Translations under genes and position numbers: made by a program | Assembly: GCF_006345805.1 (NCBI RefSeq) | Contig: NC_043000.1 | Span: 161,634,001 to 161,698,000 of the forward strand | Direction of reading: 5' to 3' | Length of the DNA stretch: 64,000 bases | Source: Octopus sinensis | Taxonomy: Eukaryota | Shown: one piece after another, positions 29,100-55,391 of the stretch | How positions within the stretch are numbered: the first letter of the stretch is position 1 | Layout: every line of letters begins with the position of its first letter | The notes under the pieces: generated by a model | Told to the model about the DNA's origin: nothing | Seen by the model: only the letters and a program-made list of their open reading frames with translations | Database searches by the model: none

Positions 29100-32010
29100 T
29101 ACCTTATAATACATAATAACAAATAGTATTAACCTGGCCGTCACAGAACTAATAGCCACAGAAACAAATGTGAATATGACCAGGCCAAATAATATATATG
29201 CAGCAGCCTCTGTGGCCCCAGAAAAAGCTGGATACCCCACAAAACCCATCCAGACAGAAGTATCACCACCTAAACAAACCCTGTGGATAAACTATATCGA
29301 GAAAGAGTTGTAGACAATCAACACTACTAAGCAACAAGAAGAGAAGAAAAATACTACGTAAATACAAAATTACAGAACAAGGTATACCTGAGGTAAATGA
29401 ATAGCTAAAGCAAGATCTCGCCAAACCACAAAGAATCCGCCGGTATGAGAAATGCTAACATTCCTTTGAACAAAACAAATGGTTCGACTCCAACTCCAAA
29501 AGATCCTGCCAAGAACTTGGCAAAAATAAAGTAGAGATCAAGGCAGCACCAACAGCAGCAGAAGTGGAGGAATTTTGGAAAGAAATATGGTCGGCGAAGG
29601 AACAACCTCAGAAAAGGTGTATCAAAACAACGATTACAGCCCCTGAGCAACTCTGGAACCCTATAACATTTGAAGAGGTCTCCAAAATACTGCAAAAACT
29701 AAGCAACTGGAAGTCACCTAGACGCGGCAATAGTACCAACTTCTGGTTAAAATACCTAACAGGAACACATAAAAAGCTGGCTGAGAGATTTAATGAAATA
29801 CTAGCAGAGCCAGAGACAATACTTAAATGGCACACAAAAGGGAAAACTATCCTAATTCCCAAATCCACTGAAACAGCAAACCCACAAAATTATAAAGCGA
29901 TAACTTGTCTCCCTTCACTTCACAAAGCTTTTACTGCAATAATATCGCTGAGAACGAGCAAGCATCTGGAAGAAAACAACCTGTTTCCAGAAGAGCAGAA
30001 AAGACGCTGCCAGAGCTCATACGGCAGTAAAGATTAGCTACTAATCAATAAACCCATAACTGAAGACAGCCACAAAAAGAAGGGTCTAAGTATGGCATGG
30101 ATCGATTATCGAAAGGCTTTTGATGGTATTCCCCACACATGGATCATAGAAACACTAGCCATTAACAAAGTAGCACTAATAATCATAAAATATATCAAAA
30201 CATTCCGTGAATAAATGGCAGACAGTGCTACAGCTGCAGACAAAAGAGGAATTCATAAGAGCCAAAGCCATCCCCATTAGAAGAGGAATATTCCAGGGAG
30301 ACACACTCTCTCCAATCCCTTTATGCGTGGTGGCTCTGACACCTTTATCTGACATGCTAAAGAGAACTGGATGTGGATACAACTGTTACGGCAAAACAAT
30401 CAGCCACCTCTTATATGTGGATGATCAAAAACTGTACGCTACAAATGATAAACAGCTGGAAACATTGCAACAGACAGTACACGGATTTACCAAGGAAATA
30501 AACATGAAATTTGGCTTAGAAAAATGTGCCTAGTAGCCTTGAAAAGAGGAAAACTAGCTAAGAGTAGCAACATCACACTAGATAAAACAAATGAAATAAA
30601 AGAATTAGACCGAAGCCAGATATAGAAATCCTTAGAAATCAATGACATAGATACAACACGCACAAATGAAAGAGAAGATAAAAGAATACTGTAGACGAGT
30701 TAGATCAATACTAAAAACAGAGCTCAATGTGAAAAACAAGATAATAGGTGCCAACACTCTAGCAATCCCAGTTATAAGTTGCAGCTACAATATTCTTAAC
30801 TGGACTCTAAATGAACTAATCAAAATTGAGACGAAAACAAGAAAAATAATGACAGGATTTAGGATGCACCACCCAATATCTGACATAGAAAGGTTATATA
30901 ATCAACGTATGGAAGGCGGTAGAGGCCTTATACAGCTAGGAAAATATTACAAAATAACCACCATAGGACTACAGAAGTACCTACTTCAGAAGCTAGGAAA
31001 ACTAATTCACAAAACGCGAACAAAACAAAGAACTGTTTTCAGTCTTTAAGGAAGCTGACAAATACGAAAAAGAAGTCATAGTACCTAACACCTATAAAGA
31101 AAAAGAAGAAACAACAAAAGCTGTAAAACAACTGAAATCCAAACTAAAACTGGAGCAGCAACAGATCATGATAAAACGATGGCAAGAAAAGCCCCTTCAT
31201 GGCAAATACTGGACTAAACTAAACGCAAAAGAGACAAAGTAAAATCACAACAATGGCTGAGGAACTTAGGACTCACAGCACAAGACCAAAGCCTCCCCAC
31301 CAGAAATTACCAAAAACATGTAATGAAGAAAAAAATACGGCCAGCAACTGCAGAATATGTGAAGATGGCAAGAAAATAAATCATACTATCTCTGGCTGCT
31401 CAGTCCTGGCTAAGAAAGAATATATTTACAGACATGATAGAGTTGGGATCTATATACACTGGAAGTTATGCCAACACTACGGCATAACAACAAAAAAATA
31501 AAGATGGTACAGGCACACGCCAAAAGAGGTCACAGAAAGTGAGAAAGCAACCATACTACGGGAGATGCTAATACACACAGATAGAGAAATTAAGGCCAAT
31601 AAGCCGGATACAGTTGTCAGAGATCATCAAGAAAAATATGCTCTCTAATCACGGTATCAATACCTACAGCGGACAATGTTATTCTAAAAGAAACGGAGAA
31701 ACTCTCAAAATACAAAGACCTGGCAATAGTGATAACTCGAATGTAAAGTCTAAAAGCAGAAAAATTCCTATCATAGTGGGCGCATTAGGTATGATTGAAA
31801 AATATTCAGAAATATACATAGCAAAAACACCAGAATTAACAAGTATATATAACATACAGAAAATAGCACCACTAGGAACCGCACACATTCTAAGTAAAAC
31901 ACTTTCAATACAGTAAAAATAAGAGAATCACAACAAACCACAGCACATACTCAAGGTACACAGTGCTGCGCTCGGTTGTGCAGTGAAAGGACGTGATAAA
32001 AATAAGACTA

Positions 32011-32013
<3 letters not shown>
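29100..32013 (+). mobile_element. Dong/R4-clade LINE, long decayed copy (RT + CCHC + REL)
   Basis: NWKSP..NFWLK, GKTILIPK, NYKAITCL, WIDYRKAFD, RRGIFQGDTLSP, HLLYVDDQKLY, CRIC..HTISGC, PIIVGALG; ends at (TAA)n. Confidence 0.95.
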
Positions 32014-32079
<66 letters not shown>

Positions 32080-32080
<1 letters not shown>

Positions 32081-34121
32081 GGCTGAACAAGCACCTGGAC
32101 GAAAACAAACTGTTCCCAGAAGAGCAGAAAGGATGCCGCAAAGGCTCATATGGCTGTAAAGATCAACTAATGATTAATAAAGCCGTAACTGAAGACAGCC
32201 ACAGAAAGAAGAAAGGCCTCAGTATGGCCTGGATTGACTACAAAAAGGCGTTTGATAGCATCCCCCACACATGGATCCTCGAAACACTAGCCATTAACAA
32301 AGTAGCACCAACAATCATAAAATTCATAGAGCACTCTATGATAAATGGCAAACAGTCCTACACCTCCAAACAAAAGAGGGACTCATGAAAACCAAAGACA
32401 TCGCCATTAGAAGAGGAATATTCCAGGAGACACGCTCTCTCCACTCCTTTTCTGCTTCGCACTGTCACCTCTATCTGATATGCTAAATAGAACTGGATGC
32501 GGATATAAATGTTACGGCAAAACGATCAGCCACCTTTTATATATGGATGACCTAAAACTATACGCTGCAAATGACAAACAGCTGGAAACACTATTAAAGA
32601 CAGTTCATGGATTTACCAAAGAAATAGATATGAATTTGGATTAGAAAAATGCGCCAAAGTAACCATGAAAAGAGGAAAACTAGTTAAGAGTAACAACATC
32701 ACACTAGATAAAACCAATGAAATAAAAGAATTAGACCAAAGCCAAACTTACAAATACTTAGGAATCCATGAACTAGATAAGACACAACACACACAAATGA
32801 AAGAGAAAAAAAAGAAGAATATTATAGACGAGTTAGATCAATACTAAACACAGAGCTCAATGCTAAAAACAAGATAATAGGTATCAACACTTTAGCTGTC
32901 CCAGTTATAAGTTACAGCTACAATATCCTTAACTGGACACGAAATGAACTGTCCAAAATAGATAGGAAAACAAGAAAAATACTGACAGGATCTAGGATGC
33001 ATCACCCAAAATCTGACATAGAAAGACTATATATACAACGTATAGAAGGTGGTAGAGACCTTATACAGCTGGAAAACTACTATAAAATAACCACCATAGG
33101 ACTGCAAAAATACCTACTTCAGAAGGAAGGAAAACTGATCCAGATAGCAGCAAAACACGAGCAAAACAAAAAACTGTTCTCAGTATTTAAGGAAGCTGAC
33201 AAATACAAACAAGAAATCATACCACCTAATAAACACGAAGAAGAAGAAGATGATGAAGAAACAACAAAAGCTATAAAACAAATGAAATCCAAACTAAAAA
33301 TAGAACAGCAACGAACCATGATAAAACGATGGCAAGAAAAGCCCCTTCATGGTAAATACTGGACTAAACTAAACGTAAAAGAAATAGACAAAGAAAAATC
33401 CCAGCAATGGTTGAGAAGCTCAGGACTCAAAGCAGAAACAGATGTTGTGATGCTCTGATGGTTATTGTATGGAAAGTGTTCTGCGTAGGATGTGTGCAGT
33501 GCCTAGTAGTGTATGTTATATGTGTTTGTAAGTCCTGGTGTTTTTGTTATGTATTTGTCTGAATATTTTTTTATCATGCCTAATGCACCTACTATGATAT
33601 GAATTGTTTCTGTTTTCAGATTCCACATTCTAGTTACCTCTATTTCCAGGTCTTTGTATTTTGAGAGTTTCTCCATTTCTTTTAGAGACACGTTGTCATC
33701 AGCCGGTATTGATACATCAATTAGAAAGCATTTTTTTCTTCATGATCTCTGACAACTATATCTGGTCTGTTGGCCTTAATTTCTCTATCTGTGTGTATCG
33801 GCATATCCCAGAGTATGGTTGCTTCCTCGTTTTCTGTGATCTTTTCTGGTATAGGCACACACCAGAAACAATTCCTATCATAGTAGGTGCATTAGTCATG
33901 ATAAAAAAATATTCAGACAAATACATAACAAAAACACCAGGACTTACAAACACATATAACATACAGAAAATTGCACTACTAGGCACTGCACACATCCTAC
34001 GCAGAACACTTTCCATACAATAACCATCAGAGCATCACAACAAATCACACCACATACCCAAGGCACACAGAGCTGCGCTCGGTAGTGAAGTGAAAGCACG
34101 CTATAAAAATAAAACTACTGA
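32080..34121 (+). mobile_element. Dong/R4-clade LINE, 5'-truncated second copy with internal inversion/duplication (33443-33850)
   Basis: EEQKGCRKGSYGCKDQLMIN, WIDYKKAFDSIPH, LYMDDLKLY; same 3' UTR as 31920-32013; begins and ends in TAA repeats. Confidence 0.95.
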
Positions 34122-34137
34122 ATAATACTAATAATAA

Positions 34138-35128
34138 TCGTTTAACGTCCGCTTTCCATGCTAGCATGGGTTGGACGATTTGACTGAGGACTGGTGAACC
34201 AGATGGCTGCACCAGTCTCCAATCTGATCTGGAAAATTTCTACAGCTTGATGCCCTTCCTAACGCCAACCACTCCGAGAGTGTAGTGGGTGCTTTTACTT
34301 GCCACCGGCACGAAGGTCAGTCAGGCGGTACTGGCAACAGCCACGCTCAAATGCTGTTTTTTACGTGCCACCTGCACAGGAGCCAGTCCAGCGGCACTGG
34401 CAACGACCTCGCTCGGATGTTTTTTCACGTGCCAGTAAGGCGCTGCTGGTAACGATCACGCTCGAATGGTTCTTTTTACGTGCCACCAGCACAGAAGCCA
34501 GTCAGCAGTTCTGGCAACGATCACGCTCGGATGTTGCTCTTAGCGCTCCACTAGCACGGATGTCAGTCATCGATTTTTATTTCGATTTCACTTGTCTCAA
34601 CAGGTCTTCACAAGCAGAGTTTAGTGTCCAACGAAGGAAATGTACACATAAGTGGGCTGGTTACGCCCCTGGCATAGGCCACGAGGTTATGGTCCAACTA
34701 GGCTTGCCGGATCTTCTCAAGCACAGCATATTTCCAAAAGTCTCGGTCACTAGTCATTGCCTCGGTGAGGCCTAATGTTCGAAGGTCGTGCTTCACCACC
34801 TCATCCCAGGTCTTCCTGGGTCTACCTCTTCCACAGGTTCCCTCAACCGCTAGGGTATGGTACTTTTTCACACAGCTATCCTCATCCATTCTCGCCACAT
34901 GACCATACCAGCGCAGTCGTCTCTCTTGCACACCACATCTGATGCTTCTGAGGTCCAACTTTTCTCTCAATGTATTTACCCTCTGTCGAGTATGCACACT
35001 GATATTACACATCCATCGGATCATACTGGCTTCATTCCTTTCGATCTTACGCATGACCTCAGCAGTCACGGCCCATGTTTCACTACCATGTAGCATGGCT
35101 GTTCGTACACATGTGTCATACAGTCTAC
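34138..35128 (-). mobile_element. RTE-clade LINE 3' end with tandem repeats in the 3' UTR
   Basis: VRTAMLHGSETW...RRLRWYGHVARM...GRGRPRKTW; ~55-bp units (ttttacgtgccac...) at 34290-34560; same tail at 47170-47325, 52050-52105, 54705-54952, 59580-59898. Confidence 0.95.
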
Positions 35129-35136
35129 TTATATAT

Positions 35137-36030
35137 ATACATATAAGTGGGTTGACCACTAAGTGGACATCCATTATGATAGAAGTCCATCCCCTGTGGT
35201 CTGATTTGTGATTAATCTGTATAGTTTGTATCTTTCATTTGTCTTGCTCACTTACGTTCTGGCGTTTGCTAAATTTTCTTGAGAACATTCCTTTCTTAGT
35301 GGTAAGACCATAGGGGTCGTTTTCTAGCACAGTGGATGTCCACTTAGTGGTCATCCCCCTTATATGTATGTAATATAATTTTTATGAATTTTCAGATTTT
35401 TCTATATGCTAGACCACTGGTTTTAAATTGATATCAATCAAATTAATATTCAATTTTAAACCCTTATTATTTTAAATTTAGATTTAAATAACTATGTTCT
35501 CTAACCGGCAAAATTCACTGCAGAGAATTATTTTCTGCAGAATTATTTCCGGTATTTTGGCGCGCCAAAACGAAGACTTTTGAAATATAACCCCAAACGA
35601 AGACTTTTGAAACATAACCCCTATAATTGGTAGAACACTATACATGTTTAATCTCATGCGGACGTCTCGTATATAGTTCTGCAAATTATATTTTGCTATG
35701 ACGATCACACTGACGAGTTGCGGACATCTACGTAAATGATTACGTAAGTAGTAACAACGAAACTGGTTTGTGATTAATCTGTATATTTTGTACCTTTTCA
35801 TTTGTTTTGCTTGCTTACGTTTTGGGGTTCGCTATATTTTCTTGAGAACATTCCTTTCTTAGTGGTAAGACCATAGGGGGTCGTCTTCTAGTTAATGGAT
35901 GTCCACTTAGTGGTCATCCCTCTTATATGTATGTAATATAAGCTTTCCGAATCTTCAGATTTTTCTATATGCTAGACCACTGATTTTAAATTGATATTAA
36001 TCAAATTAATGTTCATTATTTTAAATTTAT
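35137..36030 (+). mobile_element. Penelope-like/retrozyme-like element: ~1.5 direct units (562-nt period) plus a short inverted 5' arm
   Basis: 35201-35470 repeats at 35763-36030; 35137-35173 is the reverse complement of 35333-35369 and ~35896-35932; contains a hammerhead. Confidence 0.75.
35703..35775 (+). ncRNA. Type I hammerhead ribozyme motif, canonical core
   Basis: GAUCACA CUGACGA GUUG...(uacguaa-auga-uuacgua)...CAAC GAAAC ug GUU UGUGAUU. Confidence 0.85.
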
Positions 36031-36057
36031 GTGTGTGCGTGTGTGTGTATGTGTATG

Positions 36058-36167
<110 letters not shown>

Positions 36168-51556: not shown

Positions 51557-52206
51557 GAGTGTCCGGTGTCTAGTGACTTGCTTCTCACAAAGAACAATAG
51601 AAATAGATGTTGAATAATAGGGTTCATCAGAAGTTATTTCTAATAGCTAGAATAGCAGATTTAGCTATATTTCAAACTATTATTACTTTTAAGTGGTGGC
51701 AAATTTTGTCTTTATTTCTTTATTGTATTTTTGGTTCTGTTTGGGATCGTTTTTTTTTTGTTTCTTATTGTTCTTGTTTATATTACTATTTGTAATGTAG
51801 TGGTGTGATTTTGATGATGGTGATTTGGGGAGTGTTTTTTTTAGTTAATGATGCTGTTGTTGCCTGAGCTAATTAATTGTTTTATATATTTTGTTTTGTT
51901 TTGTTTTTTTTCTAATTGTTAGATTTCTTATTCTACTGCTTGCATACATATATGCACACACATGAATATGGAGAGATATATCTATACATATTTAAGGGCA
52001 TATATATTGTGGTAATATATAGACACGTATAAAATTATAAATATGTGTTTCATCATCATCATCATCATCATCATTTAACATCCGCTTTCCATGCTAGCAT
52101 GGGTTGTGAATATATATATATATATATATATATATAATGAAAATAGTAATGCAATACGAGAGTATTGCTTTCCAGTAAAGGATAGCCCGTGAGGGTAAAA
52201 TTATAC

Positions 52207-52261
52207 ATATAAAAGTAAATAAATGGCACAAATATTGGTGCTTCGTTGTGCCATTTATTTA

Positions 52262-52270
<9 letters not shown>
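52207..52270. repeat. Perfect 25-bp inverted repeat ending at (TA)n
   Basis: atataaaagtaaataaatggcacaa-14 nt-ttgtgccatttatttacttttatat. Confidence 0.9.
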
Positions 52271-52304
<34 letters not shown>

Positions 52305-52731
52305 GTGTACAATTAAATGCAAGAGAAAACTACCTTTAACAGGTAATTTTTACATGCTAGAAGAAGCAGTCAAAATGACCAAAACCACATTTACGAGCAA
52401 TTTTCGAAGGGAATGAAAATAAAAACTTTTACTGTGTTATTTTTTGTGGTAAGTATATACATATATAGACAGATAGATAGTTAGATATATAAAAATGTAA
52501 GATCCAGGGATTGAGGTGTAGGGAGAAAGTAGCTTCTAGCAATCCATAGTAAATATAAAAAACAACTTTCAGGGATTTATTTGTGATTTATTGAGACAGA
52601 AGGTTGTGGATATTTTTCATATTGAAGTACGATAAACTGAGAAAAGTTCTTTTTATATTTCATGGTAGGCAACCAGGGTTGCTAAGGTGTGCGAATAAGA
52701 ATGCAAGAGTTACAGAATGGAGAGGATTAGA

Positions 52732-52822
52732 TCCGGGCTATATATGTTTCATAGCGAACAGAACCACAGAAGTGATAAATATTCAAGCAAGGTGTAAACC
52801 ACAGGCTACTCTTCAGGCCAGA
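52732..52822 (-). ncRNA. Type I hammerhead motif with long helix II insert; one helix III mismatch
   Basis: UCUGGC CUGAAGA GUAGC...GCUAU GAAAC AUAU AUA GCCCGGA; abuts palindrome 52819-52919. Confidence 0.6.
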
Positions 52823-53383
52823 CAAGAAAGGAAAAAGTATCAGTGAACAATAATAATGTCTTACCTCAAATGGGCAAGACATTATTATTGTTCACTGATA
52901 TTTTTTCCTATCTTGTCTGAAATAGATTTGTGACTTCTCAGTGGTACAGAAGTATTTTTTGACTTCTATCATGAGCGATATAGGTACTCATTTAGTACCC
53001 TTATGTATGTATGTACATATCTAATATTGTATGTATATATTTTATTAATTTGCCTGTACGGCTAATAATTCGCTTACCACTTGTGATGGTATTTTAATAA
53101 TACCATCCCTATATTTATTATATATATATATGTGTGTATATATATATATATACATGTGTATATATTGAATATTTTGTTAATTTGAAACACTTGGGGTGGA
53201 AGATGTTTCAGATTTTAGATTTCCTCAAATTTTGAAATGATTTTATATTTGTTCTGTTAAAAGGAGACAGATTAATGATGAAACTTCATAAATTATTTCT
53301 GAAAGTTTCCATTTGTGATCCCTCTCTCACTTGGATTTTGGATTTCAGAATTTCAGTTAAAGACATACATATGCACATACGTG

Positions 53384-53416
<33 letters not shown>

Positions 53417-53795
53417 ATATATTTATGTATATTTGCATGAATACATAGATAAATATAAATATAATTCACACATATGTTGCTGTTCCAAATAATTCATAAT
53501 TTATATAGACTGAGAACTATTGAATAACACCTTCCTAAGCCTAATTATGAATAACCCTGCAAATCATGTGTCTTACTATCAAGCATGAATACATGCAAGC
53601 ATGTGTGTGTGATTGTGTAGACATTCACACACATGCATACTCATATATATATATATAGGGAGATGTACTCGCATAGCAAGTGATTTGATCTGAGATCGTG
53701 TGCTGAAACGAAAACAATTGCAGCGTGGAAGGTGTTTGTAAGCCATTTAAGAAACACACAAAAGCCGTTCGATTCACTTCAACATTTAAGTTTAA

Positions 53796-53845
53796 TTTGT
53801 CAAAATATTTTCGTCACCAAAATCCGCGACCTGTTCACTGACAAA
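53796..53845 (-). ncRNA. Minimal hammerhead motif, G3-C8 core (left arm)
   Basis: UUUGUCA GUGAACA g GUCGC ggauuuug GUGAC GAAA AUAU UU UGACAAA; 7-bp helix I, palindromic helix III AAUAUU. Confidence 0.7.
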
Positions 53846-53855
53846 AATACGGATT

Positions 53856-53905
53856 TTTGTCAGTGGACAGGTCGCGGATTTTAGCGACGAAAATATTTTG
53901 ACAAA
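53856..53905 (+). ncRNA. Minimal hammerhead motif, G3-C8 core (right arm, A6G)
   Basis: UUUGUCA GUGGACA g GUCGC ggauuuua GCGAC GAAA AUAU UU UGACAAA. Confidence 0.6.
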
Positions 53906-54107
53906 TTAAACTTAAATGTTGAAGTGAATTGAACGGCTTTTGTGTGTTTCTTAAATGGCTTACAAACACCTTCCATGCTGCAATTGTATATATATATATA
54001 TATATATTTAGTAAATCCAAACATGAAAACACAAAGAGAAAACACAACAACGCGAGGATGTGGAACAAGTATAGTGGACGCTCAGCAAAGGAAAGAAAGA
54101 AGGAGGA

Positions 54108-54140
54108 TTTAACGTTTCAAGTGGAGCTCTTCATCAGAAA
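54108..54140 (-). ncRNA. Minimal hammerhead motif, canonical core, in TA-flanked repeat 54010-54215
   Basis: UUU CUGAUGA a GAG cucca CUU GAAAC GUU AAA. Confidence 0.65.
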
Positions 54141-55391
54141 CATAGAAAAAGGAAAGGTCCAAGGAAGGGAAGATAGAGAAAGAAATCGTCAACGATATAC
54201 ACGCGATCACATATTGAATATATATATATATTTAGGTACAGATACTACATATATGTATATATATGTATAACAGATATGTATTTACAAGTATATTTAACAT
54301 GCTTAAATGTGCTCAAATGGGGGAAGACCTTTTGCCACAGAAATTGTTTTGGGAGAAATTACTCCTCTTAGACAATGTGTGGAAACATAACGAGCTATGA
54401 CTTCTGCCTGTCAGTGTTACTATACATTCTCAGTGATGAATACTAAATTCATCCTTTATTGCCAAATCAGAACAATAGTTCTGGTATACAAGAATAGCAA
54501 ACAATAAATTTGCTGGCATAAGTAAAGCTTAAAGATCCACAAAGCAATATTGGATAAAATATATGCATGTACAATGCTATTTGTCACATTCGTGTGAACT
54601 TGATAATGGGAAGACCTTTCACTGCGGAAATAGTATCAGAAAATTTTTTTGCTCGTGGGCAACATTTTTGAAAACACATTGTTCATTATTGGATCATCAT
54701 CATAAGCATCATCGTTTAACGTCCGCTTTCCATGCTAGCATGGGTTGGACGATTTGACTGAGGGCTGGCAAACCAGATGGCTGCATCAGGCTCCAATCTG
54801 ATCTGGCAGAGTTTCTACAGCTGGATGCTCTTCCTAACGCCAACCACTCCAAGAGTGTAATGGATGCTTTTACGTGCCACTGGCACAAGGGCCAGTCTGG
54901 CAGTACTGGCAATGGCCACGCTCAAATGTTTCTTTTTACATGCCACCTGCACAGTGTATATATATGTATATATATATATATATGTGTATATATATATGTA
55001 TATTTTTGAAAACACATTTTTGAAAAAACATAGGACATGATTGGATGATGAACATAGATACAGAAAATTATATGTTTTTCCATTACCTTCTCCATGTAGG
55101 TGGAATTTGAACTCAGAATGTAGAGAGTCAAAAGATACACAATAAAGCATCTCCAATAATATGCCAATGGTTCTGGTATTCTTCCACCCACTAGAACAAT
55201 GGAAAATAAAATGTTTTGCTCCAGAACACAATACGTCAGCCAATCCAGGAATCAAACACATGATCTAGCAATTTTGGGGGCAATACCCTAACCACTAGGC
55301 CACGTACCTTCACATTATATACACCCATATATATGTGTGTGTGTGTGTATATATATGTATACATACATATACGTACAAACATGAATATGTA

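Follow-up and report, generated by a model that had tools for sequence, protein, structure and literature searches.

Does a 562-nt repeat period next to a predicted hammerhead ribozyme in the genome of Octopus sinensis record a self-cleaved, possibly circular RNA that was reverse transcribed about one and a half times, as an earlier note on this DNA proposed, or another form of insertion by a Penelope-type element (PLE)? The window, that is, the whole stretch of DNA analysed, comprises 64,000 nt (RefSeq assembly GCF_006345805.1, NC_043000.1, positions 161,634,001 to 161,698,000, forward strand). Positions within the repeat unit are counted from the predicted hammerhead cut, so that +1 corresponds to 35769 (downstream copy) and to 35207 (upstream copy). 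The insertion and its flanks contain the following features:

34698..35127, minus strand: left flank, outside the element; 3' part of a LINE-like ORF, broken at 35128
35128..36030, plus strand: whole insertion, 903 nt, non-coding; inverted arm and ~1.5 units of the 562-nt repeat
35128..35202, minus strand: inverted 5' arm, ~75 nt, reverse complement of unit +99 to +173 (BLAST, alignment and mapping)
35201..35480, plus strand: upstream direct copy, -6 to +274 (BLAST and alignment)
35481..35702, plus strand: unrepeated middle of the unit, variable among family members
35703..35775, plus strand: type I hammerhead motif (descriptor search with shuffle control)
35763..36030, plus strand: downstream direct copy, -6 to +274 (alignment)
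36031..36166, no strand assigned: right flank; (TG)n followed by (TAGA)n simple repeats

The insertion reads, in order, arm, -6 to +274, middle, ribozyme and +1 to +274, with a period of 562 nt at the repeat start, as first described. BLAST aligns 35201-35460 with 35763-36025 at 89% identity (E 4e-94); the full direct repeat, to 35480/36030 (+274), has 234 identical positions, 32 different positions and 15 gap columns, and the downstream copy carries a 14-nt gap relative to the upstream one. The recurrence of ~260 nt that had been placed at 35207-35470 is real, although it runs on to +274. The same holds for the inverted piece at the 5' end: the 37 bp given in the earlier note are the best-matching core of an arm of ~75 nt, which matches the direct repeat at 84-86% over 75-76 nt (BLAST, E 1e-15 to 1e-17). 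At its outer end (35128) the arm grades into a (TA)n run, and at its inner end it overlaps the direct part by 2 nt of microhomology (35201-35202). The upstream direct copy (35201-35480) retains only the last 6 nt of the 5' side of the ribozyme, and the 3' end of the downstream copy (36030) is the likely start point of reverse transcription. The 562-nt unit is 33% G+C and contains no ORF. In six frames of the insertion, the longest stop-free stretch on the ribozyme strand spans 42 codons, a 115-codon stretch on the opposite strand runs into the flanking LINE-like frame, and the reverse transcriptase (RT)/GIY-YIG ORF of an autonomous PLE is absent. No pair of 30-40-nt tails and no target duplication could be read in the insertion.

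The middle (35481-35702) harbours a perfect palindrome of 16 nt, TTTTGGCGCGCCAAAA, at 35555-35570, which looks like a double E2F site and could belong to an internal promoter. Also in the middle, 27 nt are duplicated in tandem (35565-35618). Further along, 35659-35673 and 35719-35734 form a 15-nt near-direct repeat, by which the start of the hammerhead's loop 2 is copied 60 nt upstream.

The surroundings are rich in other repeats. The broken LINE-like ORF on the left (34698-35127), which we take from its motifs to be of RTE type, has a single named homologue among 96 matches; it comes from Octopus vulgaris and is 90% identical across 51% of the query. Other copies of this flank continue differently past 35128 (71-102 contigs in each of three sequencing runs), and the expected continuation of the ORF is absent from the 64-kb window. 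The simple repeats on the right are the likely insertion target. Pfam assigned no family to any of six neighbouring ORF fragments (0 of 6). LINE-like fragments at 29459-34100, presumably of R4/Dong type by their motifs, contain a near-perfect internal inversion (33443-33612 against 33863-34042, 98-100%). A long, near-perfect, MITE-like palindrome lies at about 53715-53985, and the segment that holds it folds at z -28.7; the segment 22001-22562, used as folding background, has a z of -5.5. At 52202-52310, an inverted repeat of ~74 nt beside a (TA)n run is possibly another short inverted insertion.

The hammerhead motif at 35703-35775 is more than chance. Its helix I has 7 bp (35703-09/35769-75), followed by the core CUGACGA (35710-16), a helix II of 4 bp (35717-20/35755-58), GAAA at 35759-62 and a helix III of 2 bp with a GUU triplet, which places the predicted cut between 35768 and 35769; the descriptor match thus yields the same position as the earlier prediction. 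With helix I set to at least 7 bp and helix II to at least 4 bp, the 64-kb window contains one match, as against none in any of 100 dinucleotide shuffles; looser helix limits give two matches in the window against a shuffle mean of 0.03. In a search with 141 nt, the Rfam model Hammerhead_1 (RF00163) aligned over its whole length at 18.3 bits (gathering score 34; E 0.037) with 38 nt inserted around helix II, and Rfam searches of the 64-kb and 5-kb sequences returned no hammerhead match. The helix lengths of 7, 4 and 2 bp fit the canonical metazoan type I, for which PMC4209133 gives about 6 bp in helix I, 4 bp in helix II and 1-2 bp in helix III. The description of the motif as canonical therefore stands for the core and the short helix III as set out in that paper, and fails for the 34-nt loop 2, for loop 3, which is not truly palindromic, and for the GUU triplet.

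Loop 3 consists of 2 nt (UG) and cannot close alone, so that helix III, with its 2 bp, could form only in a dimer. The loop is no true palindrome, and self-pairing in a dimer needs two G-U pairs (-3.2 kcal/mol). A GUU triplet is expected to cleave more slowly than GUC. The ribozyme appears weak and reliant on a dimer. Loop 2 contains a 7-bp hairpin (35729-35746). Many family contigs have G at 35736 (6487 of 10693 in summed depth in run X1, 800 of 907 in X14), which turns the hairpin loop into GUGA, a loop that we take to be a GNRA tetraloop. Loop 2 is also complementary to conserved sequence around +130, at a predicted -13.9 kcal/mol, a pairing that was not used as evidence.

Two additional hammerhead-like repeats lie within 20 kb of the main element. 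One is a minimal motif on the minus strand (54010-54230, core at 54137) with an extra A before helix II and GAAAC-GUU; it sits in an element of ~220 nt with (TA)n on both sides and no similarity to the main element beyond TA runs, and this small element is likely the solo terminal repeat of a different Penelope-type family. The other is decayed (52730-52919, minus strand, core at 52816), has a long helix II insert and directly follows a 102-nt palindrome (52819-52919, 90%), an arrangement like that of PLEs joined head to head.

The element is an aged copy from a high-copy, non-coding, hammerhead-bearing repeat family. Relatives were collected by aligning contigs of four out of 24 listed public runs, from three organisms, to 35060-36040 at 80% likeness; the runs are all contig sets, and none is recorded as RNA. 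Such contigs are unable to show RNA ends, strand or circles, which leaves an empty list of sites with many molecule starts or ends uninformative, and depth derived from them is no copy number; the nucleic acid of one run, X10, is only guessed at (RNA, maybe DNA), and X10 served solely as a source of other copies. The four runs yielded 8656, 9353, 748 and 4893 aligned contigs, many of which sit on the flanking LINE-like part, and every run covers the bins of the element without exception up to 36016. Diverged contigs cross every unit junction in the same order, with examples from X1 carrying 13-31 other letters each. They run over +274 into the middle (X1 records 3-4, X10 records 9-10, X14 record 21), across the middle (35482-35713; X1 record 5, with 21 other letters and 25 gaps) and from the ribozyme into the repeat (X1 records 6-7, X2 record 30, X10 record 13). 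Among the contigs listed for the four runs, none spans the whole insertion. The idea of a retro-copied unit of Penelope or retrozyme type, read about 1.5 times, is supported, and a local duplication is opposed by these diverged copies, which cross the same unit junctions as the window copy.

The 3' end is shared as well: among the 24 of 1445 loose-end rows listed, three X10 contigs end at the same base as 36030 and continue into (TA)n. At sites 35271-35304, 35402, 35781 and 35976, the minor base in X1 and X2 (4-62%) is the majority base in X14 (77-99%), a shift that suggests turnover of subfamilies from one species to another. Three runs have loose ends before 35233 (46, 8 and 33 contigs); these were considered as clustered 5' ends and set aside, as mismatches private to the window copy could cause them. 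A possible intron (GT 35302/AG 35396, noted by eye) was likewise dropped; no such joint occurs among the rows listed, and a donor-adjacent variant dominates X14. In other sequence collections, a scan with a 19-nt motif found four metagenome loci, one prokaryote-genome locus and no viral locus, all five of them dismissed as chance matches with similarity only over 19-29 nt around the motif, and two further motifs found no match; these scans brought up no autonomous PLE with the terminal sequence of the element, whose unit has no ORF with which to search.

The position of the ends relative to the cut separates the window copy from a simple product of cleavage. The direct repeat already sets in 4-6 nt before the cut site, with five of six bases matching (rough chance about 0.008). 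The homology does begin about 6 nt before the cut equivalent, as the earlier note had it, and for that very reason the insertion does not start at the cleavage site itself: the 5' end of the window copy is not a ribozyme-made RNA end. A cut linear RNA would lack those 4-6 nt, so that either the template ran unbroken through the cut site or the enzyme switched to the 3' end of a cut RNA.

Junctions in other copies come from the rows listed, which were 15 out of 113 for joints and 12 out of 66 for letters between the aligned parts. Nine distinct strand-inversion junctions were kept (four opposite-strand rows, three arm-to-direct rows and two from the table with intervening letters). Rows were dropped where they merely continued the minus strand from the arm (two), likely came from the same locus as another (one) or had no stated orientation (three, one with an end at +24), as were direct-copy switches and local indels. 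The 18 ends of these junctions do not cluster at the cut, which was the check that the earlier note proposed: none of them lies within 20 nt of it, and all are downstream, from +27 to +196. The +27 end could be nearer the cut, since mismatches in the reference may clip it. The nearer end falls at +27 to +70 in seven of the nine junctions (about 0.014 under a uniform model, for an interval picked afterwards).

Contig depth changes sharply at the cut. The median summed depth, with the two copies added, is 10, 14, 35 and 15 times higher over +19 to +249 (seven bins) than over the middle and ribozyme (eight bins) in the four runs, a median that leaves out the cut-spanning, flank, arm, 35456-35488 and last bins. 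In all four runs every one of these downstream bins is deeper than any of the upstream bins, and depth drops after 35488; the bin across the cut (-14 to +18) belongs with the low ones. As a hypothesis, this 10-35-fold step would fit a ribozyme-cut RNA that limits most cDNAs, contig depth being weak evidence; ordinary 5' truncation or a structural stall could be the source of part of the pattern. A literature search found no account of PLE ends at the cut.

Taken together, the window copy is a member of a high-copy, non-coding hammerhead repeat family and was probably inserted in trans by a PLE enzyme from a longer-than-unit RNA that was likely intact across the cut. What is observed is the layout, the lack of an ORF and the many diverged relatives; the enzymatic steps are all modelled on PAc, the PLE from the anole, and on published PLE structures. 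A PLE endonuclease would nick the (TG)n/(TA)n target, and reverse transcription would start within the RNA at a fixed position (+274, counted from the cut), in the manner of the anole PLE in vitro. The cDNA would then cross one intact ribozyme junction, copy a full 562-nt unit and stop 4-6 nt past the next cut site. A short second cDNA, primed from the other target strand at the AT-rich stretch near +173 and possibly copied from a second RNA molecule, would form the arm and be joined through the 2-nt microhomology. PMC11167929 shows that PAc begins reverse transcription internally and takes mainly uncut RNA as its substrate. At the 3' end of the octopus element, a stem-loop comparable to the start site of PAc was sought and rejected, the local hairpin being no more stable than shuffles (z +0.45).

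A circle and an uncut tandem transcript would give identical DNA. The layout is not diagnostic of a circle because it is the published PLE layout (PMC8557442, PMC3846280), which PMC8557442 describes as a partial tandem with an adjacent inverted, 5'-truncated copy at microsatellite targets. An uncut transcript that reads through tandem units appears more likely than a ligated circle, given how weak and dependent on a dimer the ribozyme seems. The depth step points elsewhere for the family at large: it suggests that cut RNA is a common template, which is hard to square with uncut RNA as the general template and would speak for circles or template jumps as the source of full-unit copies. A possible long-range helix that joins +46 to +64 with 35556-35575 was also considered and is not distinctive (-21.2 against -19.3 kcal/mol at another site).

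The origin of the arm can be read from its differences. Over 75 columns there are 17 differences between the arm and the upstream copy, 11 between the arm and the downstream copy and 14 between the two copies. Two sites have non-majority bases common to the arm and both direct copies (by the loose-end majority, agreement 0.68-0.71); at two further sites, read by eye, the direct copies alone depart and the arm keeps the majority base. Because of these latter two sites, the arm appears, weakly, to come from a second, closely related template rather than from fold-back; the same two-template signal would result if the direct copies had later undergone gene conversion with each other. The fold-back finish proposed in the earlier note is thus possible and weakly contradicted. 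Strand inversions recur at other places in other copies, as the nine junctions attest. For PLE inversions, PMC3846280 favours self-priming, and PMC11167929 demonstrates extension of both target strands.

Three other histories would leave a similar structure. The one closest to the original proposal is a true non-LTR retrozyme, in which a two-hammerhead locus frees a 562-nt monomer that becomes a circle, either ligated or nicked and held by helix I, and a PLE RT copies it from +274 for 1.5 rounds before fold-back. The unit is indeed circularly permuted, with the cut crossed seamlessly, and non-coding at 33% G+C, and both direct copies share non-majority bases, as a single template would give. 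Retrozyme circles are known from coral, mussel and axolotl, with PLEs as the proposed mobilisers (PMC7229834), and a circular template for PLE tandems was proposed in PMC4209133. Yet the locus has one hammerhead, and no two-hammerhead locus was seen among the contigs listed, none of which spans the insertion; the 562-nt unit exceeds the circles of ~170-400 nt in PMC7229834; and eight of nine Xenopus dimers tested failed to cleave, as reported in 10.64898/2026.07.22.740005. The two diagnostic sites at which the arm differs from both direct copies speak against fold-back. Folding stability was rejected as support for a circle, being unspecific to that form (z -4.7 circular, -5.9 linear, -6.6 for the minus strand, with three of 17 background segments below z -3.6). 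On balance this history is unlikely, if still the strongest of the three. Clearly less probable is that the short unit is no mobile family of its own but a terminal repeat plus the deleted remnant of a long coding PLE, with the 562-nt period confined to one or a few loci. The middle does vary between copies around 35534-35665, as seen in joints and partly aligned contigs, and this zone may mark the loss of a coding parent. In all four runs depth is lowered at 35588-35653, joints whose middles are unknown occur at 35534-35624 and 35591-35665, X10 records 11-12 diverge after 35596-35597 with 97 and 39 letters unaligned there, and X1 record 6 has 89 letters unaligned before 35571. PLE insertions are, moreover, mostly 5'-truncated, which would also account for the excess of the 3' module (PMC8557442; 10.64898/2026.07.22.740005). 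Such a remnant is nonetheless hard to reconcile with X1 record 5, which bridges 35482-35713 and thereby places the short form in at least one diverged copy, with the fraction of only 0.01 of aligned records that continue into unlike sequence, and with the lack of any evident ORF remnant in six frames.

The last alternative is that a solo repeat, once inserted, was duplicated in tandem and inverted locally, which would build the 1.5-unit structure without an RNA step. Small local duplications (35565-35618) do occur in this repeat-rich region, and an inversion also occurs in the neighbouring LINE-like element (33443-34042). A local event would not, however, put family sequence (35481-35762) between the copies in the order found in other members, and inversion junctions recur across the family at differing positions. 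The diverged contigs that cross +274 and those that pass from the ribozyme into the repeat largely refute this explanation, which the earlier note had named as a refuting alternative, and leave it very improbable. Trans-insertion by a PLE enzyme from an RNA longer than the unit remains the preferred reading.

As a single locus the insertion is ordinary: PLE-type insertions with hammerheads have already been described, and this one adds a cephalopod example. Its value lies in the family, which is short and abundant and has its predicted cut and its apparently fixed 3' end 274 nt apart, so that the ends of family copies bear on the part that hammerhead cleavage or circles may play in vivo in shaping insertions of Penelope type. 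It is conceivable, as a tentative proposal, that the family records ribozyme action in living cells, with the 5' end of the cut RNA stopping the cDNA and triggering inversion tens of bases short of it. Most copies would then be the 274 nt between the cut and the fixed RT start, and rare full-unit copies like the one in the window would come from circular or uncut RNA. If true, thousands of copies in several octopus species would amount to a genome-scale test of the role of the PLE hammerhead. That role is called unclear in PMC8557442, and the work on PAc in PMC11167929 reports no need for the hammerhead in vitro and no RNA ends at the cut. Penelope repeats are reported to be abundant in coleoids (PMC8967140). 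A literature search found no paper on an octopus or cephalopod retrozyme; Repbase, Dfam or the supplements of papers may already hold the family.

Among known systems, the insertion is closest in layout to endonuclease-bearing PLEs and the sequences that they mobilise. Examples are Pen2a_Av and the Pen3a-mobilised insert of Adineta vaga (PMC3846280), with two direct terminal repeats and a shorter inverted one that overlaps the first; PMC3846280 describes these as pseudo-LTRs (pLTRs), which alone moved unrelated sequence in trans, and carriage in trans of non-PLE content between the repeats is known. Also shared with PLE insertions (PMC3846280; scheme in PMC8557442) are a type I hammerhead next to the repeat and simple-repeat flanks. 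The octopus insertion has these features of a non-autonomous PLE: pseudo-LTRs formed by a partial tandem, an inverted 5'-truncated copy and a type I hammerhead at the terminal repeat. Unlike the endonuclease-bearing elements, it has no RT/GIY-YIG ORF, holds only about 280 nt between the repeats and has no hammerhead in its upstream repeat. Poseidon PAc of Anolis carolinensis (Frangieh et al. 2024; PMC11167929) resembles it in having internal 3' ends downstream of the hammerhead, AT-rich targets and both target strands extendable. PAc is autonomous, with an ORF that starts inside the hammerhead and a start site in a stem-loop, whereas the octopus element lacks an ORF, ends 274 nt past the cut and has a local hairpin that is not significant.

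The metazoan non-LTR retrozymes (Cervera and de la Pena 2020; PMC7229834) share with the octopus family a short, AT-rich, non-coding unit, one type I hammerhead per unit and high copy number. They are known from another mollusc, Mytilus, at 350-390 bp (PMC7229834), and the 562-nt octopus unit falls inside the 51-972 bp range given for retrozymes in 10.64898/2026.07.22.740005. In contrast to retrozyme dimers and arrays, the window copy comprises 1.5 units with one hammerhead, not the two expected of a retrozyme locus, and has an inverted arm, a 34-nt loop 2 and a GUU triplet. The two kinds of element may themselves be related by descent, as Li, Clavereau and Pollet (2026; 10.64898/2026.07.22.740005) argue that PLE terminal repeats are a source of retrozymes.
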